Assembly (NCBI GenBank): GCA_965207885.1
Contig: OZ242311.1
Coordinates: 2,731,235-2,795,234 of the forward strand
Reading direction: 5' to 3'
DNA: 64,000 nucleotides
Source of the DNA: Candidatus Latescibacterota bacterium
Lineage (GTDB): Bacteria; Latescibacterota; UBA2968
Below the pieces are notes generated by a model. It was not told where the DNA came from and did not search any database. It saw nothing but the letters and a program-made list of their open reading frames with translations. A program made the position numbers and the translations under genes. Positions 8,472 to 60,570 of this stretch are shown in pieces; position 1 is the stretch's first letter, and the number at the start of each line of letters is the position of its first letter.

Positions 8472-8489
8472 GGAAATAACCCTTCTTTC

Positions 8490-8535: not shown

Positions 8536-8639
8536 AAAAAAAAGAGTTGGATTTCAACAATTCTTAAAAGACAGGTACTTACGAAAGGCGATATATGTTA
8601 TTTGGGATTTTGCTCGAAAATCACCCTGAACAAATTCGC

Positions 8640-15750: not shown

Positions 15751-15820
15751 AAAAACCTCCCTACTTAATTGCACAACAATCAGAATGCAATCACGATACG
15801 AAAAAGTTGTCCATACCTCA

Positions 15821-15848
15821 TGATAATCAAACAAATATTGATAATCAA
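15821..15848. promoter_or_regulatory. two Fur-box-like TGATAATCAA sites in a divergent sulfatase/PhyH promoter region
   Basis: TGATAATCAA occurs at 15821-15830 and 15839-15848. Each matches the central TGATAATCA of the classical Fur consensus GATAATGATAATCATTATC. The second copy forms the palindrome TTGAT-A-ATCAA. Confidence 0.3.
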
Positions 15849-15956
15849 TATAGCCCACAAAAACAAAAAATGAAGAGTATTTGCCGTAGTTCAGAAATTA
15901 ACTTATTATGGGACATGGCAGAAAAGGCTTGTAAACCATCGAATGAGGAATACTCT

Positions 15957-18659: not shown

Positions 18660-18690
18660 TGTTTGCTCTCCTTTCATTTTGGCGCGGTGG

Positions 18691-26525: not shown

Positions 26526-26567
26526 TGTGACTACTCCCAACGCTAAAGCAGTAGGGCTTCTTGGCGG

Positions 26568-37081: not shown

Positions 37082-37909
37082 TTATTTCCCTTTTGACGTA
37101 TCTAACCAGCTGAGGCACACCCGTTGTCGAGTGGCGATTTCCTTTTTGTGGGTGTAGTGCGCCGTTTCGAGCAATTCGAGTGTTTCGGGCGCCAGCCGCT
37201 CTTTGACCGCCTCAGGAATGGGACGGCCGGGCTGGCGGTGGTGTGGGCGGTAGCGCAACGTTAACACCCGGCGTTGGCGATCGACGGGTTTCCAGGGCAG
37301 GACCCCGTGGGTCAGGCATTCGGGTATAATGACCACATCCCCAGCTGAGGGCGTGATATTGATGACTCCCAACGGGACTTCTCCTTCGATGCGACCCTGG
37401 GAAAATAGCTGCGGTGGCCGGTCAAACTGGCTTTTGTGCGAACCCGGAAGCACGAGGAGCCCGCCATCACCTGGATGTACATCGTCCAAGTAGGGAAACA
37501 CCACAAAGTCGTCGCAATAGATACGGCCCTGGTGTATCTCGTAACGGGCGCTCTCAAAGCCGTAGTCGTCGCGGGCGCAGTGCAGCGGACTCGCCTCGGT
37601 GTGTCCGTCGGGGTCGTCGACCATGAGGGTACCGCTGGCGAGCATAGGTTTGCCGTTTGTCAGCTCCAGCACGATGGGCCAGACTGCGGGCAGAAAGACC
37701 AGCTTTTCCAGCGCCCGGTCAAAGGCGAAGCCGTGAGCAAAGCCCTTGAGATTTTCTGATTGTCCGAAATGCGGCGGCAGGTCTTCCGGTGCGCTGTCGA
37801 TGTAGCGCCTGGCAGCCTCCGAAGCCGCATCCAGTTCCTCCGGAGTCAGGACGTTCTTCAGGTGCAGAAAACCGCATAGATCAAAAAGATAGCGTTGTTC
37901 TTCGGTCAT
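37082..37909 (-). CDS. PhyH family Fe(II)/2OG dioxygenase
   Basis: MTEEQRYLFDLCGFLHLKNVLTPEELD, GGLLVLPGSHKSQF and GDVVIIPECLTHGVLPW motifs. Confidence 0.85.
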   Translation of the reverse strand: MTEEQRYLFDLCGFLHLKNVLTPEELDAASEAARRYIDSAPEDLPPHFGQSENLKGFAHGFAFDRALEKLVFLPAVWPIVLELTNGKPMLASGTLMVDDPDGHTEASPLHCARDDYGFESARYEIHQGRIYCDDFVVFPYLDDVHPGDGGLLVLPGSHKSQFDRPPQLFSQGRIEGEVPLGVINITPSAGDVVIIPECLTHGVLPWKPVDRQRRVLTLRYRPHHRQPGRPIPEAVKERLAPETLELLETAHYTHKKEIATRQRVCLSWLDTSKGK

Positions 37910-38190: not shown

Positions 38191-39237
38191 ATGGCTGATC
38201 CCGAAATCCTGGTGCTGGGCGGTCCCGAGCGCGATCTCTATCTGGCCCCGGCCGATCTGGAGCGCCTGGATAGCTTTGCGAATTGGACATGGCTCCCCTG
38301 TGAAGCGGGTCAGATCCAGCCCGGTCACCAGACCGAATTGTCGCGACGGCTGGCGTCCGTCCAGGCCCTGGTCGTCTATTCGGGGGCGCCCCATATCGGT
38401 CCCGAACTCATGGAACAAGCCCCCGAGCTACGCCTCATCGGCGAATTGAACGGCGATCGTTTCGCCGAGCGCATCGACGTGGAGGCGGCCTGGCAACGGG
38501 ATATCCGCGTTGTTGACACCACCAATGGCTCGTCCTACCCTGTCTCTGAGTGGGCCCTGGGCCTTATTCTCGTATCGTTGCGCAACGCCGGTTATTATCT
38601 GCGCCGCTACATGGAGGGAAATTGCCGCAAAACCCGCGACAACCCCAGCTTCCTGCGCGGCGAACTCACCGGCAAGACCGTGGGACTGATCGGCTGCGGC
38701 CATGCGGGCCGTCGCCTAATAGAATTGCTGCGTCCTTTCCGGGTCGCCATTCAGGTTTACGACCCCTACCTGCCTGGAACCATGGCCGAAGCCCTGGGCT
38801 TTCTCCTGACCTCACTCGAACAGGTCCTGTCGAGCTCCGATGCGATTGTCTGTCTGGCCCCGCAGACCCCCGGGACCCAGGGCATGATCGGTCGGGCAGA
38901 ACTGGATCTGATCCCCTCGGGGGCTGTACTGGTCAACGTCTCCCGCGGTCCCATCATCGATTCGGTCGCCCTGGTCGAACGCCTCAAGCGCGGCGATATT
39001 ATCGCTGGCCTCGATGTTTTCGACCCCGACCCTATCCCCGACGGCCACGAAATAACCGGGCTGGACAATGTATTCCTTACGCCCCATATCGCTGGCGTCA
39101 CCCGGGCCGCCTACTGGCGCTTTTTCGAGCTGATGGTGGACGAACTAGACCGCTTTTTCCACGGCTTTGAGCCCTATTTCGAATTGACCCAGCGCACCCT
39201 GGACGACCGCAGCGGCCGTCGCCCCGCCACTCATTAA
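38191..39237 (+). CDS. D-isomer-specific 2-hydroxyacid dehydrogenase family, NAD-binding
   Basis: AGGAGG Shine-Dalgarno site. GKTVGLIGCGHAGRRL Rossmann motif, LVNVSRGPIID, and DVFDPDP...TPHIAGVT. Confidence 0.85.
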   Translation: MADPEILVLGGPERDLYLAPADLERLDSFANWTWLPCEAGQIQPGHQTELSRRLASVQALVVYSGAPHIGPELMEQAPELRLIGELNGDRFAERIDVEAAWQRDIRVVDTTNGSSYPVSEWALGLILVSLRNAGYYLRRYMEGNCRKTRDNPSFLRGELTGKTVGLIGCGHAGRRLIELLRPFRVAIQVYDPYLPGTMAEALGFLLTSLEQVLSSSDAIVCLAPQTPGTQGMIGRAELDLIPSGAVLVNVSRGPIIDSVALVERLKRGDIIAGLDVFDPDPIPDGHEITGLDNVFLTPHIAGVTRAAYWRFFELMVDELDRFFHGFEPYFELTQRTLDDRSGRRPATH

Positions 39238-39298: not shown

Positions 39299-40282
39299 TT
39301 AAGTCTCTTTGGGTGAAAGCAGAAAATGGTCAAACCACGCGACCATCTGCTCGAAGTACTCAACGAGAAAGCGATGATTGCCGTCGGGTTGATAGACTTT
39401 AAAACGATTATCGTGTCCTATTGCTGCATAGGCTTTTTTTACAACGGGTATAAGAGCATCGACGCCTTGACGCGGCATGTCTTCGTCCCGGGTGGGCGAG
39501 ATCATCATAAAGGGGCGCGGAGGCATGCAGGTGGCTACGACGCGCGGATGATCAAAGTGACACAGGAAGTTGGGGATGTAGTAATAGGCACTGTGTCGTT
39601 CGTTGTCGCTATGGTGAATGACGCTGGCCAGGCTGCCAAGGCCACCACAGACAGTTACGCCTGCCGCGATCCAGGGTGCGCACGCCATTGAATACCAGGT
39701 TGCGTTGCCGCCAAGCGACATGCCTGTCAGGCCAATGCGGCTTTTGTCAACGCCATTTATCGCGCAAAGAATTCGAGCGGCTCTGAGTGTTTCTTCGACG
39801 AGAATGCCCATCTGGCTTCGTCCATACGGAGTCAGGAGCTTGTTCTCGGTTGCCCATTCTTCAATGCTGCGGCGTCTTCCTTCTGTGCCTTTGATCGAGA
39901 TGGCCAGTGTCGTGAACCCTCTTCGCGCGAGTTCACGTCCCCAGCCAATCAATGGACCATCGGGAGATTGATGGAATTGTGGATGAGCGACCCGTTCGGC
40001 AGAGCCGGATGTGCCAGAAATGCATACGATTCCCGGTCGCAATTTTCCCGTATGTCCAGGCGGTTCCAGGAGGATGGCCGGAACGGTTTCGTGCAGTGAG
40101 TTCTGATAGCTCAGATGGGTGACGCGAATGTCTTCGGTTTCTCGCGTTTCTGAGGTTGTGAAATCTACGTTGTCTGGAATTGTAGCCAGTCCCAGAAGCT
40201 CTATGAGCTTTGCACGGATATCTGAGTCGGCAAGGTCAGATGTGGATGCTGGCTGGATGTCAGGTGGTATGATAGGAAACAT
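39299..40282 (-). CDS. alpha/beta hydrolase (dienelactone-hydrolase/esterase-like), cytoplasmic
   Basis: Nucleophile elbow GLTGMSLGGN and a C-terminal His block DGNHRF. It shares overall architecture with the gene at 49956. Confidence 0.7.
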   Translation of the reverse strand: MFPIIPPDIQPASTSDLADSDIRAKLIELLGLATIPDNVDFTTSETRETEDIRVTHLSYQNSLHETVPAILLEPPGHTGKLRPGIVCISGTSGSAERVAHPQFHQSPDGPLIGWGRELARRGFTTLAISIKGTEGRRRSIEEWATENKLLTPYGRSQMGILVEETLRAARILCAINGVDKSRIGLTGMSLGGNATWYSMACAPWIAAGVTVCGGLGSLASVIHHSDNERHSAYYYIPNFLCHFDHPRVVATCMPPRPFMMISPTRDEDMPRQGVDALIPVVKKAYAAIGHDNRFKVYQPDGNHRFLVEYFEQMVAWFDHFLLSPKET

Positions 40283-40302
40283 ATCGAGAAACCTTTATCA
40301 TC

Positions 40303-41763
40303 TCACGGTTTTTGCACGACAAATTCCGGCCGTGGAATCATGCGTTCTGGATTCCGTTCGTAACCTCGTTTCCACAACTCCTCCACAAGCCTTCCACTTT
40401 TAGCCAGTTCTTGGCGAAGTGCCTGCTGGTCTGCCTTTGCCCTCTGATCAATCGCTTCCGGGCAGCACACCTGGTATAGTATTCGCCGAAGCCGAGCCAG
40501 TTTCTGAGACGCATCGGGACGCTCCGCAAGATCTTGCATCTCCAAAGGATCCTCTGCAAGGTCAAACAACATCGGTCTTTCCCCAACGCACGCTACATAT
40601 TTATCTGAACCCGATCTAAGAGCAAATGCGCTTCCCGGAAGGCCCGGCCCATGGAATTCACTGATAGCGAATTCGGGAAGCGCCGCACCCGGCTCGCCCC
40701 TCAAGGATCCCAGCAAGGATGTCCCCCGCATGTGTGTTGGCGAAGGCAACTCCAGGGCTTCCGAGAATGTCTGGAAAAGATCGAGATGTGAAACAGGTGC
40801 AGGCTCGGACCCTCCTGACTCTATGCCGGGTCCAGCCACGATCATGGGTACGCGAATTGAATCCTCATACATCGATCCCATTCCGGAATTGCGATGTGCC
40901 CCCATGCTGCCACCGTGATCCGAAGCATAGGCGACCAGGGTCGAATCCCAGAGATTCTCGGTGTCTATGGCTTTGAGCACGCGCCCCACGTTGCGATCTG
41001 CCATCTCACAGATGCCGTGGTAGCCTACCAGACCACGGCGCAACTCTTCGGATGTGCAAAGATCGCTGCACGTGTAACGAACAAAATCCCTGTGGAAGGG
41101 GTGCAGTCGAGAAACGGGTTCCGAATAGCGCTCGTCCAGGTCTTCGGTTCGCACCAGCGGATCGTAGTAATCCCATAGCTCCTGCGGCGGATTCCATCCG
41201 GGATGGGGCTGTTTGATATTCACTATCAGGACCCAGGGGCGATCTTGTGGGCGTTCATTCATCAGCCACTGTACCGCTTCTTCCACGACCTGCGCGTCGT
41301 GCTGGTGTTCCCCACGCCTACTTGCAGGACCCGCTTCCCGCAATCGATGCAGGTGATGGTATCGGGGTTGCACGCGGCCCTCTTCGAACAGCGTGTGTAC
41401 GTCCAGACTCTCCCGTGCCTTGGCCAGGCGCATATCTTCCACTCCAGCATCACTGCCCGGTTTGTAATCGAGCTTGCCAATGGTCGTAAGCACGACACCA
41501 TTTTCTGCAAAGTAATGCCCCCAGCCTCTGGGCACTCCTGAATAGGGAAACGCATTGTCCCAGGTGGAGATTTCGTGAACATACCGTCCCGCCATCATCG
41601 CTCCCCGAGAAGGCGCGCACAGAGGACTTGGACAATAGGCACTGTCGAATCTCTTTCCTCGTCTGGCGAGCGCATCGATGTGAGGCGTACGGGTAATGGA
41701 ACTACCGTAACAACCGGAAAACTCCGGGTTGTGTCGATCGGTCATGATATAAACGACATTCAT
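40303..41763 (-). CDS. Cys-type sulfatase, no signal peptide
   Basis: The ATG at 41763 (MNVVYIMTDRHN) has GAGGTG 7 nt upstream. PLCAPSRGAMMAGRY and ASDHGGSMGAH motifs. The track start at 41967 overlaps the upstream gene. Confidence 0.85.
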   Translation of the reverse strand: MNVVYIMTDRHNPEFSGCYGSSITRTPHIDALARRGKRFDSAYCPSPLCAPSRGAMMAGRYVHEISTWDNAFPYSGVPRGWGHYFAENGVVLTTIGKLDYKPGSDAGVEDMRLAKARESLDVHTLFEEGRVQPRYHHLHRLREAGPASRRGEHQHDAQVVEEAVQWLMNERPQDRPWVLIVNIKQPHPGWNPPQELWDYYDPLVRTEDLDERYSEPVSRLHPFHRDFVRYTCSDLCTSEELRRGLVGYHGICEMADRNVGRVLKAIDTENLWDSTLVAYASDHGGSMGAHRNSGMGSMYEDSIRVPMIVAGPGIESGGSEPAPVSHLDLFQTFSEALELPSPTHMRGTSLLGSLRGEPGAALPEFAISEFHGPGLPGSAFALRSGSDKYVACVGERPMLFDLAEDPLEMQDLAERPDASQKLARLRRILYQVCCPEAIDQRAKADQQALRQELAKSGRLVEELWKRGYERNPERMIPRPEFVVQKP

Positions 41764-41800
41764 AGCAGTCACCTCGGTGCGCGTTGTCAATGTCGGCATC

Positions 41801-42619
41801 TTAAGCCGTTGGAACATATCCCAGCTGGTCGTTATGTGCCACAGCTTCGGGGAAGGTCTCGTGAAGGTGGTCGAGAACCATCTCAATCTTACACCTGCAC
41901 AAAGAGCTGGGATAGGGCATCTCGCCGGTACGCCGGAAAAATGCCCCGTTCTTTTCGTGAAAATCACCCCGCCGGTCCATGAACTGCCCCCAGTGTCCCA
42001 TCGTGTATCGCATCTCTGTTCTTCTCTCAGCGCTCTGAATCCAGGCCTCGGGAAACAGCATTTGAAACCGCGGTGCCGAATTCATCCAGCTGCCGCATCG
42101 AACCACTTTTACTTCCGGCCGATGTACTTTCGAATCTCTGAGCAGCCTGATTAGCGATGCCGCAAACTGTATGTGCATATCGCTGAGGGGAGATTTTGGC
42201 TGGTAAACATTGGCAATATGAAGGCTCAACGAGTCCTCGTGCTTGTAGTCATGATTCCAACATTCGTGTGAACGATCGCCAGGTCTGGGCTGTTCGTTAC
42301 CCAACGTGCGAATGCGCGCTTCCATAAGTGGCCAGAGGATCGCAAGTCCCCTGATCTCCACGGATTCACTATCATTACCATACTTGTCGAAGATTTCTCC
42401 CAATTTCCCTACAATGACGTTCCATTCGGGATCTTCGTCTCCCGCTGCCGGATGGTGGTTGCCGTTGTAGAGTGAGGTATTCCGGTACAGATTGACTCGC
42501 ACGTTGACGGTATCTTCCAGATCGCCGAGATTTTCCTGCAGCCGTTTGTTCGCGTACCAAAGGCTCAACCGGGTGAATTCCCGAGCATAATGCACGCGAA
42601 TCGGATCCAGATCGGACAT
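41801..42619 (-). CDS. hypothetical protein (possibly GNAT-C-like/acyltransferase-associated fold)
   Basis: The ATG at 42619 (MSDLDPIRVHY) has GGGGG upstream. The ..VVRCGSWMNSAPRFQMLFPEAW.. segment recalls C-terminal domains of some acyltransferase-like proteins. The call is weak. Confidence 0.55.
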   Translation of the reverse strand: MSDLDPIRVHYAREFTRLSLWYANKRLQENLGDLEDTVNVRVNLYRNTSLYNGNHHPAAGDEDPEWNVIVGKLGEIFDKYGNDSESVEIRGLAILWPLMEARIRTLGNEQPRPGDRSHECWNHDYKHEDSLSLHIANVYQPKSPLSDMHIQFAASLIRLLRDSKVHRPEVKVVRCGSWMNSAPRFQMLFPEAWIQSAERRTEMRYTMGHWGQFMDRRGDFHEKNGAFFRRTGEMPYPSSLCRCKIEMVLDHLHETFPEAVAHNDQLGYVPTA

Positions 42620-42647
42620 TGATTCTACCCCCGTTGTTCGTATTGCG

Positions 42648-44834
42648 TTAATCTTTTCCTCTGCCGGATTTTGCACCAAAATCCTGCCAGCCCCAATCCA
42701 GATGGATTCGGGGTATGGAAAACTCGTAATACCAGCGAATACTCACGGGTTCGTGTTGAGGTTCCAGGTATGCATAAAAAAGAGCAGATCGGCCCGTCAC
42801 TTCATCCAGCATCCCTGCAGGCGTGAGTTCCGACAACAGGTTCGGATCCTCTTCCACTTCCAGGTAACGCAGCAAATCATTTGTGTGGTTTTCGGCGCCG
42901 CTGGAATTCACCTGAACGGGTGTCTCATGTTCATTCCACCACGGCAAGTCCGATGCTGGTTGAGATTCTCCGTCTGCCGCCTTTGCCCAGATCGGTGTAC
43001 TCCAGGCAAACTCTCCATCGTTCTGGCGAAGCCGTATGTAGTAGGCATTCTCTTTGAGCGGATGCTCATCCACGTAAGTCAGATCTACGTCCAGCGTGTT
43101 CGGACGCCAGGTCTTCAAGCGTCGATCATTCCGGATGAGATCTACGCGCTGCACTGTTGAGCATGCGTGAGCTACCACGCGAATTCTGGCTGGGCCTGAA
43201 AGCTGTATCTCGCTACCAGCGGGATTGTCCTCTACCGAAACCATCAGAATGATTCGAGCCCCGGTCGTTGCAAAGGTTCGTTTTTCAGCGACAGCTTGCC
43301 AGATGGCCTTTCGTTCACAGTGAGTGGCCCACACACCTGCCAGAGGACCCGATCCAAATCCGGTGTCACGGATGTTGAGCACCTTGTTGAACCGACCCCG
43401 GAAGCAATGGGGAGCCATTGGGGCGCCCAGTGTGGGCAGATGGATATCTCCCGATCCGATAACGGCCGGTCGATAGCCGTACCTCAGTGCCTTCTGCAAG
43501 AGCCACTCGAAAGCGCCGTGACCGCTGGCCACTTCCAGCAGTGGTTCGACATTTGGCCGATATTTGTCCCAATTTGGCGGTCCCCCTCCAACGTGGGATT
43601 CAAGAAGAACATCCTCCCGATCTCCGTAGGTTTCCAGCAGGGTTTCCATCGACGAAAAGGTCGGCAGGTACCCATCTTCCATCTCCCGGAACACGACGTT
43701 TCGGTCCCCTCCGGAGCGCGTGTGAACTTCCGATGCCAGGAAGGGCACATATATTCCGGGCTCATCGTGATTGGTATATGCCTGTTGAAAGGCTTCCCAC
43801 AGTTCAGGTTCGTCAGCCTGATCTGGTGGCGACATGGGGCCCGGAGCCGCAAAATCCAGCCGTCCCACTTCGCGGGCTTGCCTGTGTCGGGCATCCGGAT
43901 CCAACTTGAAGCTGGGCTCGTCCATCAGCGCCATGGACGTATCGCCCCAGGCGTGGGAGTGAAAGTCTCCCCAGAGCAGCCGGAAGTCCGGAGAATTCTG
44001 GCAGAATATCGGATTGCTTATGGCTCGAAGGTCTCCATCCCTCGCTTCAAAGCGATAAACGCCAGGGTGGTCAATCTGCACGTCCTCCAACCTCAGGACG
44101 CCGTTATGTACTGGCTCAAACACGGCTCGATCCGGCAGGCCCGATACATTGTCGGGGGCAGTTAACTGGACGACGCCCCGATATTGTTCACACACATTTC
44201 GATGGATATCGAAAGCGACCAGATTGAGGTGAAAAGATTCGTCCTGTTCGACAATGGATGGTCCCAGGATTCGCAGCATATCTGCGGATGCTTCTGAAGT
44301 AATGCGAATCCGGATCTCCCCACCCGCGATGCTGACAAATTCACCACCGCCATTGCGATCTACCGCTGCCTCCAGTCGCGCCATTGTAGTCGAGTCATAA
44401 ACTTCAGCACCTGGACCACCCCCGCAGCGATCACCGATTCGCAATCTGACCCAATCTCCTTTTCGAAGGATCCCTTTCGATACTCGGATTCTCGCAACTT
44501 CGGGTTCGTGACCGTGGTCGGAATTGACAGTCAGGTCCAGCCCGGCGTCAGAATTTGACTCCATTGTCACATAGTCGCGTCCCAGTGGGTTATTCAACTG
44601 AGGGACGTGGCCCATGAGGAATCCGCGGCGGAAGAAGCAGAATCCACCACCATCCTGCACATCCGCTGCAGCAGTAAATGTGATCTCCCATGTGCCGACT
44701 TTCCCGGCAGACAAATTGAATGTGGATCCCGATGCAACAGAACCATCTGCACCCCGAAACAGGACCTCAAATCCGTCGGGTTCATCCCCGGGAATCGAGG
44801 CATGGATCCACTCTATGCGAGCGTTTTTTGACAT
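42648..44834 (-). CDS. large PHP/DUF3604-like metallohydrolase, paralog B (728 aa)
   Basis: LLWGDFHSHAWGD (D-x-H-x-H), EVHTRSGGD, VASGHGAFEW, VIGSGDIH and CERKAIWQAVAEKRTFATTGARIIL motifs. It also has an N-terminal region of about 290 aa and a C-terminal extension of about 110 aa of unknown type. Confidence 0.7.
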   Translation of the reverse strand: MSKNARIEWIHASIPGDEPDGFEVLFRGADGSVASGSTFNLSAGKVGTWEITFTAAADVQDGGGFCFFRRGFLMGHVPQLNNPLGRDYVTMESNSDAGLDLTVNSDHGHEPEVARIRVSKGILRKGDWVRLRIGDRCGGGPGAEVYDSTTMARLEAAVDRNGGGEFVSIAGGEIRIRITSEASADMLRILGPSIVEQDESFHLNLVAFDIHRNVCEQYRGVVQLTAPDNVSGLPDRAVFEPVHNGVLRLEDVQIDHPGVYRFEARDGDLRAISNPIFCQNSPDFRLLWGDFHSHAWGDTSMALMDEPSFKLDPDARHRQAREVGRLDFAAPGPMSPPDQADEPELWEAFQQAYTNHDEPGIYVPFLASEVHTRSGGDRNVVFREMEDGYLPTFSSMETLLETYGDREDVLLESHVGGGPPNWDKYRPNVEPLLEVASGHGAFEWLLQKALRYGYRPAVIGSGDIHLPTLGAPMAPHCFRGRFNKVLNIRDTGFGSGPLAGVWATHCERKAIWQAVAEKRTFATTGARIILMVSVEDNPAGSEIQLSGPARIRVVAHACSTVQRVDLIRNDRRLKTWRPNTLDVDLTYVDEHPLKENAYYIRLRQNDGEFAWSTPIWAKAADGESQPASDLPWWNEHETPVQVNSSGAENHTNDLLRYLEVEEDPNLLSELTPAGMLDEVTGRSALFYAYLEPQHEPVSIRWYYEFSIPRIHLDWGWQDFGAKSGRGKD

Positions 44835-46114
44835 ACGGTATCATCCGTTAATTCAGAAAGCCGCGAACGGTTGTCATATACCTTCTGAAATGCCTCTGCC
44901 GTTTGTTCGACCCAGATCGGATCGGGATCTACAGGGGTAGATAGCCAGAAGCACGTGCTATGTATCCTTTCGCTGATCGGCAGGCTGCCCGGTCGATACG
45001 ATTTTCTCGCGTTATCTGGAAGATATCCCCAGGGACCCCCAAGGCCCTCGAATGAGAAATCGTTGAACAGTGACTCCAGATGCATTACACCATACCCGTA
45101 AGGCGTTATCTCCGGCTTTGTCCGCACTCCTTCGGCTACCAGCGCTTCCAGAACCTTCGACACGGGTACTCCATAGGCTTCGGGATCGACCAGACCCGCA
45201 TACAACAAGAGACCGCCGCGGGTAGCCTTTGGATAGGCCTTCTGAGTCTCAACCCCCTCTACATTCTCGAGAAGCTCGTCCATTTGTGCAAACCACTTTC
45301 GGCGCTTTTCGTTGAGCTCTGAAAGGCGTTCGAGCCGCCCCCGAGCCATCGCGATACCAAAAGGATTCGCTCTGTATTTGACGCCCAGGCCCATGTTGTG
45401 CAATCCCTTAAACCGATCGGTTTTCCACGATCCCCCGCAACGACCGTACTGTCCCAATGCCATCATCTGATCATAGAGATCATCGTCATCTGTCACCACC
45501 ACCCCGGCCTCCAATCCCGTAACTGGCTTGCTGCCCTGCAGGCTGAAGCATCCAATGTGGCCAATGCTGCCCACTGGCTTGCCATCCCACAGAGCGCCGT
45601 GTGCGTGAGAGGCGTCTTCAATCAGCTTGATATCGGTTCCGGCGATCAGGTCCAGCAGTCCATCCATATCCGCCGGATTCCCATAGACGTGTGTGACGAC
45701 AATCGCGCATGTCCTGTCTGTGATTCGTTGCTTTACATCTTCCGGATCCGCACAGAAGGTGTTCGGATCTACTTCGCAGAATACTGGTGTTGCGCCGCAG
45801 TGGAGGATGGGTGAAATCGTGGCATGCCAGGTGACCGATGGCACGATCACTTCTTTGCCAACACCGGCACCTGCAGCAAAAATGGCCGAGTGCAAAGCTG
45901 CGGTTCCGTTGCACGTACAGATCGCGTGCTGGGTCTTTACCAGTTTGCTGAAACCAGATTCGAAGAGCTCGAGATGTCGCCGGGCTGTGTTCGGATCGTC
46001 CAGTACCTCGTTCACGTACGACTTTTCGAGCGGGCCGATATTTTCCCACCCATCTCCTACCGGAGCCGTAACGGCCTTTGGGCCCCCTTCAATTGCCAGA
46101 AGTGATTGTGCCAT
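44813..46114 (-). CDS. DegT/DnrJ/EryC1/StrS-family PLP-dependent aminotransferase/dehydratase
   Basis: CNGTAALHSAIFAAG, IVPSVTWHAT, IEDASHAHGA and FSLQGSKPVT (PLP lysine) motifs. The 3' end overlaps the start of paralog B by 22 nt. Confidence 0.85.
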   Translation of the reverse strand: MAQSLLAIEGGPKAVTAPVGDGWENIGPLEKSYVNEVLDDPNTARRHLELFESGFSKLVKTQHAICTCNGTAALHSAIFAAGAGVGKEVIVPSVTWHATISPILHCGATPVFCEVDPNTFCADPEDVKQRITDRTCAIVVTHVYGNPADMDGLLDLIAGTDIKLIEDASHAHGALWDGKPVGSIGHIGCFSLQGSKPVTGLEAGVVVTDDDDLYDQMMALGQYGRCGGSWKTDRFKGLHNMGLGVKYRANPFGIAMARGRLERLSELNEKRRKWFAQMDELLENVEGVETQKAYPKATRGGLLLYAGLVDPEAYGVPVSKVLEALVAEGVRTKPEITPYGYGVMHLESLFNDFSFEGLGGPWGYLPDNARKSYRPGSLPISERIHSTCFWLSTPVDPDPIWVEQTAEAFQKVYDNRSRLSELTDDTVCQKTLA

Positions 46115-46172
46115 GGTATTCTCCTAAAGTAATCTTTACCCTGGTTGAGATTTTTGGAATCAAAAAAGGTTC

Positions 46173-47552
46173 TTATCCGTCCAGCCCTCTATTCCATTTG
46201 TATAAAAGCCATTTGCTCAGCGCCTGCCCATCTCCAATTTGCCACGCCCAATCTTCGAGTTTCCCGAACAGCGTCCGCAGCACTTCTTCCAGCCCGGGTT
46301 CGCGGAGCCTGTTGTTTATTTCGTCTGGATCAGTGGGACGATGATAGAGTTCCGGAGGTCGCTCTGAGTTGACGATCAGTTTCCATTCATTTGTTACAAT
46401 ACACCTTTCAAACATCGTAGGGTCACTTTCCGGAGGACAGTAGAGACCATCCTGACGATATGGATGGTTCTGAATATAAACAGAGTCACGCCATGGACCT
46501 TTGCCAGAAAGCAGGAGTTCTCTCGCGCTGCGACCGTGCAGGCCATCGGGAATGTCTAGCCCGCAGAGATCCAGGATGGTGGGCACCAGGTCTGCGTGAC
46601 TGACGAGTTCGCTTCGGACTCCAGGTTTGATCTTTCCGATCCAGTAGAAGATCAGAGGAATTCTGCTCGCCGTGTCGTAGCAATTCCGTTTTGGCTGAGG
46701 ATTCCATCGGTAGACAAAATCATGCCCGTGATCCGATGTATATACAATCAAGGTGTTTTGCTCGAGGCCCAAAGTATTCAGGACATCCACCATCCGGCCA
46801 ACGTTTTCATCAATTCTGTTAACCATTGCATAGTACGTGGGGTACTGGACCTTTCCCTGAAATCGCTCGCAGTTTTTCGGGGGAGCGGTCCACGGTGTGT
46901 GCGGAGGCCGGAAAGATACGATCAAGCAGAATGGATTCTGGTGGTGTTCGCGAATAAACTGGATTCCGCGGTCGAACTCGAAGTCAACACGGTACTCGCC
47001 TGGTTCTTCACGACCAAAATCGGGAATTGCAGACTCGTGATTGTCGGGCACGGTCCATTTCTTCATGGGCTCTCCAACCCATTGTGATTCACTCCCGTCA
47101 TGACCTTGCCAGACATCAAAGTAGTCCGGAGGAGGCTGGATCGGTCTTCCCGATACAGGTCGATCGAAAGGCTCAGGCGTCGGACCCAGATGCCATTTAC
47201 CGACGTAGCCGGTGGTGTAACCCATATCGTGCAGGAGCCTCGGAAAAGATGTTGTGTGGTCGGTCAAAGTCACATCGTTGTCCCAGACCTCAGTCTTGTG
47301 GGGAAATAGTCCCGTCAGGATTGAAGATCGGGCCGCGGAACAGAGAGGCTGGGTCACAAAAGCCGATTCAAAACAGGCACCTTCACTTGCCAGTCGGTCG
47401 ATATGAGGAGAAATTGCATTCCGATTGCCGTAACATCCCAATGAATCAAACCTCTGTTGATCAGGAAGGATCAGGATGATGTTGGGAGGTCTCCCTTCTG
47501 TCTCACCTATATTTTTATCTCTGGTCCAATCGTCCGATTGCCGCTGATCCAT
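46173..47552 (-). CDS. sulfatase with variant C-x-A-x-R motif, no signal peptide
   Basis: PPNIILILPDQQRFD, PLCSAARSSILTGLFP and YTSDHGHDF motifs. AGGAGA Shine-Dalgarno site. Confidence 0.85.
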   Translation of the reverse strand: MDQRQSDDWTRDKNIGETEGRPPNIILILPDQQRFDSLGCYGNRNAISPHIDRLASEGACFESAFVTQPLCSAARSSILTGLFPHKTEVWDNDVTLTDHTTSFPRLLHDMGYTTGYVGKWHLGPTPEPFDRPVSGRPIQPPPDYFDVWQGHDGSESQWVGEPMKKWTVPDNHESAIPDFGREEPGEYRVDFEFDRGIQFIREHHQNPFCLIVSFRPPHTPWTAPPKNCERFQGKVQYPTYYAMVNRIDENVGRMVDVLNTLGLEQNTLIVYTSDHGHDFVYRWNPQPKRNCYDTASRIPLIFYWIGKIKPGVRSELVSHADLVPTILDLCGLDIPDGLHGRSARELLLSGKGPWRDSVYIQNHPYRQDGLYCPPESDPTMFERCIVTNEWKLIVNSERPPELYHRPTDPDEINNRLREPGLEEVLRTLFGKLEDWAWQIGDGQALSKWLLYKWNRGLDG

Positions 47553-47627
47553 CTCCTATCTCCTATTTTCCAATGCCAGAATTCGACCCGAGAGCCAGTC
47601 GGTCTGTTTTATACGCAGAGACTCAAG

Positions 47628-49866
47628 TCAGAGATGCCCGCCAGACTCCAGGATACGCTCTTCCACTCTGGGAGGGGTCGGTCGGAGTCCAAAATCTCTC
47701 CACCCCCAGTCCACATGGATTTTGGGCATGTCGAATTCAAAATACCAGCGAATACTGATGGGATCTCGATCGATACCAAAATATCCGAGGAAAAGCGCAC
47801 ATTTTCCGGTGACTTCCTCGATTACGTCGAAAGGGGTCAGATCGTGAAACTCTTCAATCTCTTCTTCCACCTCCAGGTAACGGTGCAGATCGGCTTCGTA
47901 AGACTCCGCCTGGTTGGGCCTGAGGCTCGTGAGATCAAGAGGCTCGTGCGCGTTCCACCTGGGCAGGTCATATTGCTCAGATCCATCCGGACAGAAGGTC
48001 CAGATTGGCGTGGACCATGCGTATTCACCGTCGATTTGGCGGAGACGAACGTAATAGGCTCCCTCTCGCAGCGGTATCTCGTCGGTGTGGGTCAGATCTA
48101 TATCGAGTGCATCGGGATGCCATGAGTGGAGACAACGGTCATTCCGAATCAAGTCTATTCGCTGCACGGGAGCACAGGCGTGCGCGCAAATAGTGATCTC
48201 AGCAGGCGCCGAGATTTTGGCCTCGCTGCCCGCAGTGTGTCCGTTGACATCTACGGTCAGGATGATGCGCGCCCCAGTGGTGGCGAAGGTGCGCCGATCC
48301 CGAATTGCCTTCCAGATTTCGTTACGCTCGCAGCGCGCTGCCCAAACGGCGGCGATCGGTCCGTTCCCATACCCGGTGTCTCGGAAGTTCAAACCAACAT
48401 TGTGCCACCTCCCGAAGTAGTCTTTGGCGGCGATTGGAGCGCCCATCGTAGTAAGGTGGGTGTCCCCCGATCCAATAACGGCTGGGCGAAAGCCACAGCG
48501 CAGGGCCCACTGGAGCACCCATTCAAAGCAGCCATGCCCGCTGGCGACCTCAAGAAGCGGCTCGTGACTGGGACGATAATCGTACCATTGGGGGGGACCA
48601 CCCCCGATGTGGGCTTCAAGGATCACATCCTCTCGATCTCCAAACTCGGCCATCACTTCGTCCATGGTGCAGAAGGTGGGGGGATAGGTTTCAGTCCATT
48701 CACGGTAGATCACGTTCCGATCCCCTCCAGGTCTCGGGTGAACCTCTGAAGCGAGAAAAGGAACGTAAGTCCCCGGCTCATCGTTGTTCCGATAGGCTTG
48801 CTGATAGGCACGCCACAGCTCTGGTCGATCCTCCTGGATTGGCGGAACGGCCGGTCCCGGCGCTCCAAAGTCCAGCCGGCCGACTCTCCGCAACTGTTCG
48901 TGTCTCCGCTCAGGATGAATCTTGAAGGTGGGATCGTCCAGTAGCGACATGCTAATGTCGCCCCATCCGTGACAATGGAGATCTCCCCAGAGGAGACGGC
49001 GGTCGTGCTGTTCCTTGCAGAGGATGGGATTGCTCACTGCCCTTAGACCGTGGCGTTTGTCTTCCGCGATCAGACGGATAAGGCCGGGTTCTGATATGCG
49101 AATGTCTTCCAGAATCACGAGCCCGCTGTCACTGGAGCCCAACGAGATGGATTTGGGCAAACCCTCAACCGCTGAAATCGGACCAGAGAAGGTCACTCGA
49201 CCCTCAAATTGTTCGCAGATATTGTGGTTTGCATCGAAGGCCATCAGATGCAGTGCAAAGGCCTCATCGGGCGTAACGATCGACGGGCCCAGAAGCCGAA
49301 GCAGCGCCGGCACAGGATTGGATGTGATGTGAATCCTGCAAGGATTGCAGGCCAGTTCCCGATAGACGCCATCCCCTGTCCGATCCACGGCGCTGGTAAT
49401 CCGCCCCAGAGTCGTTCCATCATAAACGGCGCTCCCCGCGCCTCCATAGCTCGAATCGCCAATCTGAATGGTGAAGGAATCACCGGTTTTCATCTCACCC
49501 TCATCGACCAGCACCTGGGCGAATCCCGGACGGTGGGACTGCTTTTCTGAATTGACGATCAGGCGTAAGGTCGCATCACATTGGGTTTTTAGAGTGACGA
49601 AATCACGTCCCTCTGGGTTGTAGTCCTGAATTCGATGCGAGAACAGAAACGAGTGCCGCTGAAAAAGAAAACCGCCGCCGGCAGTTATGGTTTCTGATGC
49701 GGTGGCAGTAATCTTCCACATCCCCAACTTGCCTGCGGGCAATTCCAGATCGTGCCCACAGCTACGTGAGCCGTCACTTCCGTGAAATTCGACCTCGAGC
49801 ATCGGGCTCGTTACCCGGCACAGGTTGGACTGTGATGCTGACGCGCTGCACTCGTGATTTCGGCAT
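47628..49866 (-). CDS. large PHP/DUF3604-like metallohydrolase, paralog A, with a frameshift near codon 23
   Basis: The body (track ORF 47628..49898) aligns with paralog B throughout (LLWGDLHCHGWGD, VIGSGDTH, CERNEIWKAIRDRRTFATTGARIIL). The homologous N-terminus MPKSRVQRVSITVQPVPGNEPD is encoded from the ATG at 49866 (GAGGAG 5 nt upstream) in a different frame. The first in-frame ATG of the body is at 49802. Confidence 0.7.
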
Positions 49867-49955
49867 AGGTTCTCCTCAACAGCCGTTCGACGAATCACGG
49901 TGCCAGAACAAGTTCATGTTCAAGATTCGGTGGATGGGATTCATTTGCAATGTGA

Positions 49956-50984
49956 TCAGAGACCACCGTTCCTCCATTTGTCCAGAACATCACTGGCGAC
50001 TTTCATGTTGAACTGATGTCCGCCATCAAATTGATCGACAAATAACTGATCCGAAGCGCCGGCTGCCCCATATGCCTTCCGCACTCTGACCAGGGCTCTC
50101 TCCGCCCATTCGTGTGGCGCCAGTCGATCCTCCAACCCCCATTCAATCACCATAGGGCGGGGGGCGATGAGAGAGAAGATCTCCGGCGTATCCCCATACT
50201 GGAGAAGTCCCGGGATGAGTTGTGCGCCGCACTTCTTCAAAGCCTGATAACGTTCCTGGTACATGCTCAGACAGCCCGAGGGTACGGCAATCTTGACCCG
50301 TGAATCAAAAGCAGAGATCATCATGGCCATTCGACCTCCGAGCGAAATCCCTGCACAGCCAAGCATCTCACTGTCGATATAATCAAGGGACTGAAGCACA
50401 TCGAGTGCCGCCTGTAGATCGCACAGATGTAGTGCCACAACGGTTGTGCCCATCAGCGTTGCACAAAGGTAGTTGCGCATGCAATAGTCAACCCGGGGAT
50501 TTGGATAATTGGACCGTCGTTCGCCAAACCCGCGTAGATCGGGCATCAGGGTGACGTAGCCCTGCTGTGCGAATTTCTGGCCGAAGTTGTATCCCTTCGT
50601 TACAATTTCTTCTTTCCGCTCGGGTGAATTGTCGATCCCCGCCACACCATCTTTCCCAAACTGGCTGTGCCCGTGCAGGCAAAGGAGACCCGGAGTCCGA
50701 TTCTGTAACTCCTTGGGAACGAGCAAATAAGCCGGTACGAACACGTCCAGCTCCGTCTGGTAGCGAATGCGATAGCGTACGTGGTCCCCACAATCCGTTT
50801 CAGTCAGGAATTCCAGAGAAAGATCCGATCGTTCCGGGCGAAGGCCCAACAGTTCCACTACTGTTGATCGAAATCGATCCTGCCACCTCTCCAGTTCATC
50901 GACCGTTGAGCCGTCGAATAGCATTGAAGGCTCAAACTGATCCAGCAGTTGCGAAAGGTCATCTTCGAAGATGATGGGTCTCAT
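49956..50984 (-). CDS. alpha/beta hydrolase (dienelactone-hydrolase/esterase-like), cytoplasmic
   Basis: LLCLHGHSQFG, the nucleophile elbow GCAGISLGGR, and the C-terminal block FDGGHQF. Confidence 0.7.
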   Translation of the reverse strand: MRPIIFEDDLSQLLDQFEPSMLFDGSTVDELERWQDRFRSTVVELLGLRPERSDLSLEFLTETDCGDHVRYRIRYQTELDVFVPAYLLVPKELQNRTPGLLCLHGHSQFGKDGVAGIDNSPERKEEIVTKGYNFGQKFAQQGYVTLMPDLRGFGERRSNYPNPRVDYCMRNYLCATLMGTTVVALHLCDLQAALDVLQSLDYIDSEMLGCAGISLGGRMAMMISAFDSRVKIAVPSGCLSMYQERYQALKKCGAQLIPGLLQYGDTPEIFSLIAPRPMVIEWGLEDRLAPHEWAERALVRVRKAYGAAGASDQLFVDQFDGGHQFNMKVASDVLDKWRNGGL

Positions 50985-51073
50985 TGTCCAGTCTCGGTAG
51001 TATAAAATTTAATTCAGAAAAGCACAAGCGAATCCAAATCTCTTTGGGATTCCCGGGATTCTTTGGTTGCGGG

Positions 51074-52108
51074 CTATTCAAACCAATGAGGGGATTGCGG
51101 GCGCTTCGTGCGAATCGAATCCAGTGCTGCCTCACAGATAGAAACTATGCGCGCACCCCATCGAGCCGGGATCGGATTACTGATTTTGCCATCGAGCAGA
51201 TTCAGATAATCGACCACAGAGCGCCCCCAGCCGTGTCCACCAATTACTTCATGAGCAGATGATTCTTCGATTGGAACTGGCTCATGGCCACGGCGGAAGA
51301 GTTGGCCTTTCCACAACGTGCCTTCGGTGCCATATACGGCTAAAAAACCACCGCCCATTCCCTCGCCCATGCCATGTCCGGAGCAGCCGCTTGTCACAAA
51401 GACTTTGCCTGTGACGCCATTTTCAAATTGAAGGATCACAATATAACAGTCATCATCTGGAAATACCGGGATGCTGAGCTTATTGCTATAGGCATAGACC
51501 TCCGTAACCGGAGATTCAACCGTCCACAAAATCAGATCAAGTGGGTGGCAGCCGCCGCCCAGCAGGATATTCTGGGGATTTTGCCGATCAATGCGCCAGG
51601 GTGTGTGACTTTTACCCTCAGGTGAATAATGGCTCCACATGTCATGGATGTAATCGCCCTGGACAAAGAAAACATCGCCAATCTCACCGGATTGGGCCAT
51701 CAGTGCCATTTCGTGCCAGGGATGCAGGTAGCGCATGGTTTGGTCGGTCATGACATGCCGGCCACTCTCTGCCTCCGCGTCGAGGATGCGTTGGGCATCT
51801 GCCACTGTGGTAGCAAGCGGTTTTTCCACCAGGACGTGGCAGCCCTGCTCCAATGCCATGACAGTCTGATCGGCGTGCAAGTGATCCGGTCCTGCCACGA
51901 CTACAACATCGGGCTGCATTTCTCGCAGGAGTGGAGCGTACTCGTGGCCAGTCAAGGCATCCGGATATTGCTCATGCATCATGTCCAACTGTGCCTGCTG
52001 TGGATCGACGAGCCCCACAATTTCTCCACGTCCATCGGCGGCGGCTACCTGAGCCACATTACGGCCAGCGCTTCCACAGCCGCTAATCAAGAGTTTGTAA
52101 CGCTTCAT
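51074..52108 (-). CDS. Gfo/Idh/MocA-family NAD(P)-dependent oxidoreductase
   Basis: The ATG at 52108 starts MKRYKLLISGCGSAGRN (Rossmann fold). DVVVVAGPDHLHADQTVMALEQGCHVLVEKPLA motif. Confidence 0.85.
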   Translation of the reverse strand: MKRYKLLISGCGSAGRNVAQVAAADGRGEIVGLVDPQQAQLDMMHEQYPDALTGHEYAPLLREMQPDVVVVAGPDHLHADQTVMALEQGCHVLVEKPLATTVADAQRILDAEAESGRHVMTDQTMRYLHPWHEMALMAQSGEIGDVFFVQGDYIHDMWSHYSPEGKSHTPWRIDRQNPQNILLGGGCHPLDLILWTVESPVTEVYAYSNKLSIPVFPDDDCYIVILQFENGVTGKVFVTSGCSGHGMGEGMGGGFLAVYGTEGTLWKGQLFRRGHEPVPIEESSAHEVIGGHGWGRSVVDYLNLLDGKISNPIPARWGARIVSICEAALDSIRTKRPQSPHWFE

Positions 52109-52146
52109 GGCAAATATCTCAATTTTTTCTGAAATTCGAACGTTCA

Positions 52147-52932
52147 CTATCTTCTTTTTGCACTAATTTCAGCGATGGTATCACCAGTTATCTTGACGGT
52201 GTGGGTATCTACTCGCTCAACGACTTCACGGGTAGCTCTGGCCTCGGCACTATCAGCGGACTGATATTCGGTCGCGAATATATACGGAGATGGGATTGTA
52301 TAAGGTGGGATTTCCCCGATCCTCCCCATGGCCTTGCGAGCGCCTTCTCGGAGCAGATCCCGAGCTTTAGTGGGAGAGAGGGTGAGTGCAGCCGTGCGGC
52401 TGAGCCCCTCTTTCACGACAACGCTTTCGATGTCGGGAACATAACGTCGAGCCTCATCTACAGCAGCCCGATCCCCGCTGATGAAAACCGTGGGTACGCC
52501 AACCTCACCGGCATGGGCTATGTTGAAACCAATTTCGCCGATCAGTTCATCGTTCAACCAGCAGTTGGCAATGCTTCGGGAACTCCAGCTGTGACACAGC
52601 ACACCATCAGGGGTGTTCTCCATCGCGTGATGGCCATACAAAAATTGCACCTCAAATGTCAATCCCATCTCCCACGCAGAGCCTCTGGGGCGACCGTATA
52701 TCACCCGGGCTTCGCGGTGGATATGTTCGATATTGATTCCACCACTGCCGTGTCCGTCCAGCACGATAGGGTCAGTGGCGCCTCCTTCCAGAGCACCGTC
52801 TATGAGGGCGTTGATCTCCAGAGTGGCCAGATATTTTGCCTGTTCGTTGTCGCGCCCTCCGTCGTAAGTCTGAGTTTTGAAATCTACGACGCCAGCAGTG
52901 CCTTCCAAATCGCACAAGATAAGAATTCTCAT
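52147..52932 (-). CDS. M55-family D-aminopeptidase (DppA-like)
   Basis: MRILILCDLEGTAGV, VLDGHGSG, FLYGHHAM and FISGDRAAVDEARRYVP are collinear with Bacillus DppA. Confidence 0.75.
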   Translation of the reverse strand: MRILILCDLEGTAGVVDFKTQTYDGGRDNEQAKYLATLEINALIDGALEGGATDPIVLDGHGSGGINIEHIHREARVIYGRPRGSAWEMGLTFEVQFLYGHHAMENTPDGVLCHSWSSRSIANCWLNDELIGEIGFNIAHAGEVGVPTVFISGDRAAVDEARRYVPDIESVVVKEGLSRTAALTLSPTKARDLLREGARKAMGRIGEIPPYTIPSPYIFATEYQSADSAEARATREVVERVDTHTVKITGDTIAEISAKRR

Positions 52933-60350: not shown

Positions 60351-60570
60351 TTTTTTCCTATGGCGTCCAATGTGCAATTCGAAAAATAAGAGACTTGTAG
60401 AATATATTACGGTGGCTCTTATATGTCAAAGCCTACCAATATACGCTCGAAGCAGGGTATGGTCGTGATAGATATATGATGTGGAATGCCTTCAATCGCT
60501 AATCAGACTGAAGTCAGGTCAAGAGCAAAGTGACCATCTTGACGGAGGCGCCAGGCGATGGTCATCTGGG

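Follow-up and report, generated by a model that had tools for sequence, protein, structure and literature searches.

Phosphoester hydrolysis is the activity described for PHP-type metal-dependent enzymes, among them Sb-PDE and No-PDE, two diesterases related to 3E38 (PMC5460133, PMC11656708). Among solved structures, 3E38 alone is homologous to these two PHP-family phosphodiesterases, and a set of nine metal ligands has been listed (PMC11656708); Sb-PDE has a signal peptide and is probably a secreted protein (PMC5460133). A PHP-like domain also harbors the essential histidines of CehA and McbA, carbamate hydrolases for carbaryl and physostigmine whose genes reside on mobile elements or plasmids of pesticide-degrading bacteria (PMC8292978). 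Here, we analysed two considerably longer PHP-type proteins, the paralogs PHP-A and PHP-B, which are encoded in a 64,000-nt stretch of a Candidatus Latescibacterota genome (assembly GCA_965207885.1, contig OZ242311.1, positions 2,731,235-2,795,234). This entire stretch is referred to as the window, and all gene coordinates are window positions. Both genes are part of a co-directional minus-strand run of ten genes (39299-52932, Table 1), together with two sulfatases, two Abhydrolase_7 esterases, a DegT/DnrJ/EryC1 aminotransferase (DegT), a Gfo/Idh/MocA oxidoreductase, an M55 peptidase and a conserved 272-aa protein. We give even chances to the reading that the paralogs are active metal hydrolases which, together with the sulfatases, the esterase and DegT, would act in the cytoplasm to remove substituents from an imported small substrate that is sugar-like and probably anionic.

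The family behind these two proteins, whose members measure about 730 aa, is large. A word-indexed search returned 138 homologs of PHP-B, most of them 720-750 aa long and covering 96-100% of the query, and a profile search against 1.84 billion representatives gave 18,722 matches at E<=1e-3, of which 3,591 reach E<=1e-30; among these 3,591, many are 700-770 aa long and aligned end to end. The homologs from the word-indexed search are named 'hypothetical' or 'DUF3604 domain-containing', with one distant match called 'CehA/McbA family metallohydrolase'. The initial annotation of the locus, made from the sequence alone, had called the paralogs DUF3604-like. This label holds insofar as the gathering score of DUF3604 (PF12228) is passed (30.5 and 36.3 bits against 20.4) and the relatives at NCBI are so named, but only 47-88 of the 591 profile positions are aligned (326-413 or 367-413), around the motif GP(L/I)A..W....RTFATTGARI; in PHP-A the match (1.7e-7) is confined to aa 474-548. 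The rest of the protein lies outside every Pfam model, and DUF3604 is itself uncharacterised. When the domains were scanned separately against Pfam at E<=10, the N-terminal, beta-sandwich and C-terminal domains matched nothing, leaving only the short DUF3604 stretch, and no PDB chain was matched by the PHP-B sequence or by the family profile. A literature search found no description of the long PHP-type family and DUF3604 mentioned only in passing. The initial annotation had considered that the paralogs might prove to be ordinary members of a characterised family; none of this family is characterised, and its thousands of representatives at 50% identity clustering are all without an assigned function.

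The AlphaFold2 model of PHP-B is of high confidence (predicted local distance difference test, pLDDT, 91.8; predicted template modelling score, pTM, 0.92). As modelled, the family architecture consists of two N-terminal beta-sandwiches (~1-185 and ~186-282), a PHP-type alpha/beta barrel with a predicted trinuclear ligand set (~283-545), a further beta-sandwich (~546-622) and a C-terminal alpha/beta domain of ~100 aa (~645-715). The best solved match in Foldseek is 3e38 (E 4.5e-9, prob 1.00). Because fold and motifs fit while the Pfam PHP model does not, we place the family in the PHP superfamily but in no defined family; it is an undescribed member of a known superfamily, distinct in its architecture and its set of partners, and not a categorically new system. 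The whole-model Foldseek list also contains multi-Ig proteins such as GH2 and complement C3, which match the beta-sandwich domains and are uninformative. Giant proteins of 2,000-4,000 aa (P0225, P0232, P0233, P0235, P0238 and others) carry 16-36 repeats that match solely the second N-terminal domain, and this domain (profile ~170-290) is therefore a widespread Ig/Big-like repeat unit.

With regard to the active site, nine candidate ligands were found in PHP-B (H292, H294, D298, H317, E369, H414, H439, D463 and H465), all of them identical in PHP-A. The metal site is thus predicted to be trinuclear with nine ligands, instead of binuclear as first proposed. The roles of individual ligands (bridging Glu, beta-site His, DxH) were assigned from spacing and predicted strand ends and not from coordinates. 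Conservation was scored in 35 aligned sequences, 18 of which form a core subfamily (>=50% identity). H292, E369 and H414 are present in 35/35, D463 in 34/35 and H465 in 33/35, whereas H294, the second histidine of the HxH in GD(F/L)H(S/C)H, is found in 29/35 (Gln in distant members) and H439 in 23/35, both being complete in the core (18/18). The presumed third-metal ligands D298 and H317 are likewise present in 18/18 of the core subfamily and are replaced in distant members. Besides, five arginines (R321, R378, R508, R518, R527) are at least 90% conserved across all 35 sequences, distant members included. Two other roles were considered and dismissed: the invariant ligands contradict a purely structural, non-catalytic protein, and a function as sulfatase maturation factor is without support in fold or precedent.

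Both paralogs align end to end, as first noticed, with 55% identity over 709 residues (E=0) and with the motifs WGD(F/L)H(S/C)H(A/G)WGD, SGD(I/T)H and RTFATTGARIIL in either protein. The N- and C-terminal regions are common to both as well, and identity amounts to 39.5% (N1) and 46% (N2) in the N-terminal domains, 64% in the PHP barrel, 65% in the beta-sandwich and 51.5% in the C-terminal domain. As the N-terminal domains are the most divergent, A and B probably take different substrates or positions.

Besides the proteins themselves, the gene neighbourhood gives a handle on the function of the family, as it contains a repeatable partner set of sulfatase, DegT and Abhydrolase_7 esterase. Across 55 distinct genome loci and other fetched loci (individual loci or genomes are given as L numbers), only three or four gene families recur beside the PHP-like gene beyond single clades. 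In ~30 genomes or loci of Latescibacterota and Chloroflexota, the gene immediately preceding the PHP-like gene is a DegT ortholog (57-69% identity). In one Chloroflexota clade the stop of the DegT ortholog (57-60%) overlaps the PHP-like start by 4 nt amid unrelated housekeeping genes, and in the clade of the window this overlap is 22 nt; the overlap of DegT stop and PHP-B start reported initially (44813-44834) is real and the same in all sister genomes. The reciprocal test supports the view of DegT as a dedicated partner, judging from gene order: in the metagenome scan, the sole close DegT relative (69%) precedes a PHP-like gene, and DegT relatives at <=46% identity are not followed by one. 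An Abhydrolase_7 gene adjoins the PHP-like gene in ~23 loci. Orthologs of esterase 1 (58-71%) have PHP-like neighbours in Chloroflexota, Gemmatimonadota, 'Zipacnadia' and a Latescibacterota genome of 8 Mb, in which DegT is followed successively by PHP-like, Abhydrolase_7 and distant PHP-like genes, and in a second Chloroflexota clade the ortholog (61-64%) lies just downstream without DegT.

Sulfatase genes complete this set. They are located directly upstream of PHP-like homologs at 29-38% identity in L077 (4-nt overlap), L079 (63 nt) and L080 (49 nt) and also directly upstream of the PHP-like gene in L001 and L024. L077 independently combines sulfatase, PHP-like, DegT, GNAT, Abhydrolase_7 and PhyH genes as well as Amidohydro_2 genes, and in L080, genes for a hexapeptide acyltransferase and a 2-hydroxyacid dehydrogenase come after a second PHP-like paralog. 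The adjacency of sulfatase and PHP-like genes in independent lineages supports the initial proposal that the two large proteins, predicted metal-dependent hydrolases of a non-formylglycine type, are functionally tied to sulfatases. In addition, the 272-aa family adjoins PHP-like genes in the Latescibacterota loci L034, L001 and L063.

Regarding the cellular location, a simple hydropathy check identified a signal-peptide-like N-terminus in none of the ten run proteins and in none of the other sulfatases of the window. In the same check, clear signal-like N-termini were present in neighbouring genes, namely a pectate-lyase-like protein, an AXE1 esterase and three unknown proteins. Because the run proteins are without signal peptides, the pathway would be cytoplasmic and would act on small imported molecules and not on polymers. 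The initial annotation had suggested glycan decorations as targets; polymeric glycans are unlikely substrates for the same reason. In the scheme that we propose, the formylglycine sulfatases would remove O-sulfate and the Abhydrolase_7 esterase O-acyl groups, whereas DegT may turn an exposed or pre-existing amine into a ketone, which the Gfo/Idh/MocA oxidoreductase would then process. For the PHP-like proteins themselves, the most likely chemistry would be the attack of metal-activated water on an anionic ester of the phosphate or sulfate type, closely followed by the hydrolytic removal of an acyl, carbamoyl or sulfo group from nitrogen, whereby an amine would become available to DegT. Accounts of how sulfated compounds are degraded usually invoke only formylglycine sulfatases and glycoside hydrolases; the coupling of a conserved metal hydrolase with an aminotransferase implies that a further chemical step has escaped annotation. 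The locus would also represent a concrete case of a DegT-family enzyme working in catabolism.

Several observations weigh against the proposal of active PHP-type hydrolases in such a pathway. On the side of the protein, the Pfam PHP model (PF02811) does not match the isolated catalytic segment even at E<=10, and the target template modelling (TM) score of the PHP-B model against 3e38 is only about 0.5 (0.47-0.50). The single NCBIfam match of the paralogs, the CehA/McbA model NF038032, is reached with 47.2 bits by A (2e-12) and 42.7 bits by B (4.7e-11), which is under the 80-bit cut-off and covers only model positions 160-314 in the C-terminal half. On the side of the genes, the partners are not universal, as one Chloroflexota group has only DegT and another just the esterase, and among the distant homologs examined, four are orphans. 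That the ten genes form one operon is suggested by spacing and strand only, and a scan of the run for promoters and terminators was uninformative, with counts at or below the shuffled expectation. Furthermore, no transporter is encoded within the 64-kb window, and DegT enzymes are classically biosynthetic.

Three specific chemistries can be distinguished; they overlap with the general model, and their likelihoods are not to be added to its own. The first in our ranking, although rather unlikely taken by itself, is a classical PHP phosphoesterase on an amino-sugar or aminocyclitol phosphate that is made or consumed by DegT, following the logic of HisC/HisK or NtdC/NtdA/NtdB. HisC/HisK combine an aminotransferase with a PHP phosphatase in histidine biosynthesis, and NtdC/NtdA/NtdB a dehydrogenase, a DegT enzyme and a phosphatase for kanosamine; HisK is a small single-domain PHP and NtdB a HAD phosphatase. 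The parallel to the present run, with a pyridoxal phosphate (PLP) aminotransferase, a PHP-type hydrolase and a Gfo/Idh/MocA dehydrogenase, is a likeness of logic only, and this logic is biosynthetic, in contrast to the catabolic island rich in sulfatases and esterases found here. The combination of Gfo/Idh/MocA dehydrogenase and DegT in one gene run nevertheless speaks for a phosphate substrate, as do the closest solved chains of DegT, which include enzymes for substrates that are not nucleotide-activated, such as scyllo-inosose aminotransferases; the other close chains are 7b0m ('sugar aminotransferase', 4.4e-52) and perosamine synthases, and NtdA (5e-22) is a more distant match. The Schiff-base lysine of DegT in FSLQGSKPVTG aligns with the lysine of 7b0m, pointing to the aminotransferase rather than the dehydratase type, and DegT passes no NCBIfam equivalog. 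Yet the run contains no kinase or other phosphate-related gene, and many family members have neither a DegT nor a Gfo neighbour.

The structural comparison is similarly divided. Like the family described here, BVU_3505 (3E38), Sb-PDE and No-PDE have a PHP-type barrel followed by a beta-sandwich, and their ligand pattern (HxH, Asp, His, bridging Glu, two His, DxH) maps onto the nine positions of PHP-B. This full predicted trinuclear set is typical of PHP phosphatases, and the closest fold, 3e38, is a presumed phosphoesterase and the sole solved homolog of Sb-PDE/No-PDE (PMC11656708). However, these proteins comprise only 340-440 aa, whereas the present proteins have ~285 additional N-terminal and ~100 additional C-terminal residues, which form extra domains not found in known PHP phosphatases, and carry no signal peptide. 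Moreover, they have no sequence-level match to any PDB chain, and 3E38 is itself without an assigned function.

The second specific chemistry, which we likewise regard as unlikely, is an amide or carbamate hydrolase (N-deacylase) like CehA/McbA, with the freed amine being transaminated by the translationally coupled DegT. It best explains the very tight coupling of DegT and PHP-like genes. NF038032 as the only NCBIfam match is in line with this assignment, although the score is sub-cut-off and restricted to half of the model. In CehA, the HxH (His313/His315) is positioned ~300 residues from the N-terminus, similar to H292/H294 in PHP-B, with more essential histidines downstream, and the essential histidines of McbA lie in the PHP-like domain (PMC8292978). 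This likeness is one of a sub-cut-off profile and of position; a plasmid tblastn with P0116 gave only DUF3604-like genes and no link to real CehA/McbA, whose genes, unlike those of the window, are not located beside DegT or sulfatase genes. The Amidohydro_2 genes and the GNAT gene in the distant locus L077 would fit N-linked substituents, but where the esterase or the sulfatase is the sole partner, the locus lacks an aminotransferase that could use the amine. Finally, a Lewis-acid gamma metal and the many arginines suit anionic esters better.

According to the third specific chemistry, the PHP-like proteins are formylglycine-independent sulfatases or sulfamidases, acting on O- or N-sulfate at positions that the neighbouring sulfatases cannot handle, whereby N-desulfation would free an amine for DegT. 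We consider this doubtful and rank it behind the other two; if true, it would establish a new sulfatase class. In principle a metal centre can perform sulfatase chemistry, as in the metallo-beta-lactamase-type alkylsulfatases SdsA1 and Pisa1, and the conserved arginines suggest an anionic substrate. The immediate adjacency of a sulfatase gene in several independent lineages is in favor of the idea, but a complementary activity would account for it no less well than a redundant one. Sulfatases with a PHP fold are not known, and a literature search on the PHP family with sulfatase and on PF12228 found none; besides, Chloroflexota loci with only DegT have no sulfur genes nearby.

In this context, the distant relatives in cultured organisms are of importance, as they make the family experimentally tractable in Klebsiella, Rhizobium, Agrobacterium, Methylosinus and haloarchaea. 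A plasmid tblastn returned proteins of 717-805 aa with 24-30% identity. In Klebsiella, Rhizobium etli and Agrobacterium vitis, the hydrolase gene follows a GntR regulator and a three-component ATP-binding cassette (ABC) importer, whose binding protein belongs to NMT1/NMT1_2 of the NitT/TauT family; this arrangement is in line with imported small molecules as substrates. Clusters of the atsRBC/atsA/atsK type combine a NitT/TauT ABC importer with a sulfatase for the uptake and use of sulfate esters, so that the distant PHP-type members occupy the slot of a sulfatase or desulfonating enzyme; the hydrolases of these clusters are of the formylglycine, Fe(II)/2-oxoglutarate (Fe/2OG) or metallo-beta-lactamase type instead of the PHP type, and the relatives are only 24-27% identical to the window proteins. 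Further sulfur-related neighbours are TauE/SafE and a PSE-type exporter in Natrinema, SfnB in R. etli, and the SoxC sulfite dehydrogenase with a cytochrome c and a PhnD/SsuA-type binding protein in Methylosinus; in Halomicrobium, a sulfatase and three Gfo/Idh/MocA genes are found nearby. These neighbours and the NitT/TauT-type importers count in favor of the sulfatase reading, but other loci of cultured organisms show no sulfur link, and the association, recognised post hoc from annotation words in ~5/10 loci and not a statistic, is suggestive. As an observation on its own, the compact cassette of GntR, ABC and hydrolase genes is plasmid-borne in clinical Klebsiella, Pantoea, Rhizobium and Agrobacterium (also L069, L067). 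On the Klebsiella pneumoniae IncFIB plasmid NZ_CP031790.1 (L074), it comprises GntR, the ABC ATPase, the NMT1-type binding protein, the permease and a 787-aa DUF3604-like hydrolase (138480-144238), and copies of IS1 flank the Klebsiella cassette.

Taken further, a new formylglycine-independent sulfatase or sulfamidase, or another amine-unmasking hydrolase of N-substituted sulfated compounds, might constitute together with DegT and Abhydrolase_7 an as yet unrecognised cytoplasmic route that dismantles aminosulfonates or sulfated amino sugars. Such a route would be common across Latescibacterota and Chloroflexota and would exist in a simpler form on proteobacterial plasmids. We regard this wider scenario as improbable, even more so than the sulfatase chemistry as such.

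Another question concerns the origin of the two copies. Three protein families are each present twice within 11.7 kb and A and B are clear paralogs, and it had been proposed that the locus is internally duplicated, with a module of esterase, PHP-like protein and sulfatase in mirrored order. Based on our data, a recent segmental duplication in place with redundant copies is highly improbable. While the PHP pair is 55% identical, the esterases (2e-20) and the sulfatases (2e-23) each share just 25% identity and are related only as members of the same family. With E for esterase, P for PHP-like protein, S for sulfatase, D for DegT and U for the 272-aa protein, the order E-P-S-D-P-U-S-E repeats neither directly nor as a mirror image, as E-P-S faces P-U-S-E. 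In a neighbour-joining tree without bootstrap support, A and B fall into different sub-clades beside the orthologs of other genomes: B groups with proteins from other Latescibacterota and Gemmatimonadota that are linked to DegT or to an esterase, and A with paralogs of a Latescibacterota genome of 5.36 Mb in which four copies or more are present. In this genome (OZ244937.1, 182-290 kb; L024, L001/L055, L063), the PHP-like paralogs, at least four in ~110 kb, are interleaved with sulfatases and copies of the 272-aa family.

The comparison of close genomes points in the same direction. In a scan with one genome per species, PHP-B was found at 95-96% identity in nine metagenome-assembled genomes (MAGs) labelled Candidatus Latescibacterota or Latescibacteria, and MAG GCA_009840435.1 (L003), labelled Gemmatimonadetes, has the identical 10-gene order. 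Side by side, L003 and L010-L015 represent one locus at ~97-100% protein identity that is called 'Gemmatimonadetes bacterium' in one MAG and 'Latescibacterota' in nine, which suggests that the L003 label is a mislabelled or mis-binned record. Scoring gene content by tblastn with the window proteins, we found the full gene set in the sisters L003, L012 and L029, but PHP-A was missing in L010, L011, L013 and L061, sulfatase 1 was missing along with it in L011 and L013, and in L014 sulfatase 1 alone was missing. In L011 and L013, a junction alignment revealed esterase 1, a 32-nt spacer (L011:8689-8720) and then DegT, and the block of PHP-A and sulfatase 1 (46115-49955, ~3.8 kb) fits exactly into this spacer, with the flanking bases kept on both sides. 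PHP-A and sulfatase 1 therefore appear to be a presence/absence cassette that was gained or lost between close genomes; no obvious mobile-element genes accompany this block. Because of the tree placement and the spacer junctions, we take A and B to be old paralogs joined by cassette gain or loss and not by duplication in place.

Concerning the run as a whole, the eight minus-strand open reading frames (ORFs) first listed are confirmed at their coordinates, and so are their enzyme classes, with Pfam assigning Abhydrolase_7 and Sulfatase twice each and DegT_DnrJ_EryC1 once and the 272-aa protein matching nothing. The putative operon does not, however, start at 50984 as had been assumed, since the genes for the M55 peptidase and the Gfo/Idh/MocA protein precede at short spacing and are syntenic in relatives, which extends the run from eight to ten genes. 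Its borders are a divergent BNR gene (+) upstream of M55 and a convergent 2-hydroxyacid dehydrogenase gene (38191-39237, +) past esterase 2.

Table 1. Genes of the minus-strand run in order of transcription, and starts of Sulfatase genes in the window.
Feature	Position	Strand	Evidence
Peptidase_M55 (DppA-like D-aminopeptidase family), first gene of the run	52147..52932	-	Pfam PF04951 1.9e-66
Gfo/Idh/MocA NAD(P) oxidoreductase (sugar or cyclitol dehydrogenase type)	51074..52108	-	Pfam GFO_IDH_MocA 5.2e-22 and C-terminal domains
Esterase 1, Abhydrolase_7 serine hydrolase, GISLGG nucleophile motif	49956..50984	-	Pfam PF12715 1.7e-15
PHP-A, PHP-like paralog A, long PHP-type metallohydrolase, 746-756 aa	47628..49898	-	55% identity to B
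Sulfatase 1, formylglycine type, CSAAR motif	46173..47552	-	Pfam Sulfatase 2.8e-56 and SGSH_C
DegT/DnrJ/EryC1 PLP aminotransferase, 433 aa	44813..46114	-	Pfam DegT_DnrJ_EryC1 (PF01041) 2.6e-78
PHP-B, PHP-like paralog B, long PHP-type metallohydrolase, 728 aa	42648..44834	-	AlphaFold2 model, ligand motifs
Conserved 272-aa protein	41801..42619	-	No Pfam or NCBIfam match
Sulfatase 2, formylglycine type, CAPSR motif	40303..41763	-	Pfam Sulfatase 9.5e-39 and SGSH_C
Esterase 2, Abhydrolase_7 serine hydrolase, GMSLGG, last gene of the run	39299..40282	-	Pfam PF12715 1.7e-6
Sulfatase genes of the window (starts)	168, 1555, 2936, 4412, 5830, 12878, 14401, 18691, 20323 (HEAT repeats), 34615(+), 40303, 46173		

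The M55 protein matches NCBIfam DppA under the cut-off (7.8e-39) and is syntenic in L003, L011, L012, L013 and L029. The Gfo/Idh/MocA protein probably starts at the Met at 52108 and not with the raw ORF at 52147, and for this protein weak sub-cut-off NCBIfam matches to UDP-GlcNAc 3-dehydrogenase, inositol 2-dehydrogenase and glycoside 3-dehydrogenase were found. The start codon of PHP-A is uncertain (49898 (GTG), 49868 or 49802), whereas sulfatase 2 probably starts at 41763 and not at 41967; the Pfam domain begins at residue 70 of the raw ORF and the gene call of a homolog comprises 486 aa. Both sulfatases carry the PF00884 domain and a C/S-x-P/A-x-R maturation motif and are accordingly predicted to be of formylglycine type I; the best NCBIfam match of sulfatase 2 is choline-sulfatase with 218 bits against a cut-off of 433. 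The best solved relatives of esterase 1 are the structural genomics entries 3g8y and 3nuz, entitled by their depositors 'SusD/RagB-associated esterase-like protein' and 'Putative acetyl xylan esterase'.

Homologs of the 272-aa protein number 104; they are 260-290 aa long and come from MAGs labelled Poribacteria, Latescibacteria and Gemmatimonadetes. The model of the 272-aa protein (pLDDT 91) shows an N-terminal helical and a C-terminal alpha/beta part, for which Foldseek gave nothing at E<=1e-3. The top ~20 matches are GNATs over the C-terminal ~140 aa (E 0.1-1, TM <=0.43; best 2zxv, E 0.096), but an identity as GNAT is not supported, as hhalign against a true GNAT gave a probability of 0.1 and there is no Pfam match; in a reading of the sequence, the acetyl-CoA motif (Q/R-x-x-G-x-G/A) was not seen after strand 171-176. 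Likewise discarded were a match to ERCC-5 in the PDB profile search, which is due to low complexity only, and a 262-aa gene beside the Chloroflexota esterase, which is unrelated to the 272-aa protein.

The window surrounding the run is a sulfatase island, with at least 13 Pfam Sulfatase genes in 64 kb, none of which has a signal-like N-terminus. Genes for PhyH-type Fe/2OG dioxygenases are unusually many among these sulfatases (7404-8537, 11943-12689, 15807-16724(+), 17805-18707, 37082-37909, 30382-32616), one of them encoding a 744-aa fusion of Alginate_lyase (1.3e-85) and PhyH (1.2e-16), and PhyH genes also accompany PHP-like genes in L001 and L077. Mobile-element genes of the window are of the IS605 OrfB/TnpB type (Cas12f1-like TNB, OrfB_IS605, HTH) and of the rve integrase/transposase type (26568-27692, 61963-62814). 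Five ORFs of 308-894 aa have no Pfam match (23856-26540, 10454-11923, 55688-57148, 28233-30332, 36127-37053); three of these (894, 489 and 486 aa) possess clear signal-like N-termini, and the 486-aa protein is conserved beside the operon in L003 and L004. Finally, the ORF at 59514-60377 combines EF-hand motifs with an alpha/beta-hydrolase (Peptidase_S9/AXE1-like) and is conserved at the edge of L003 and L004.

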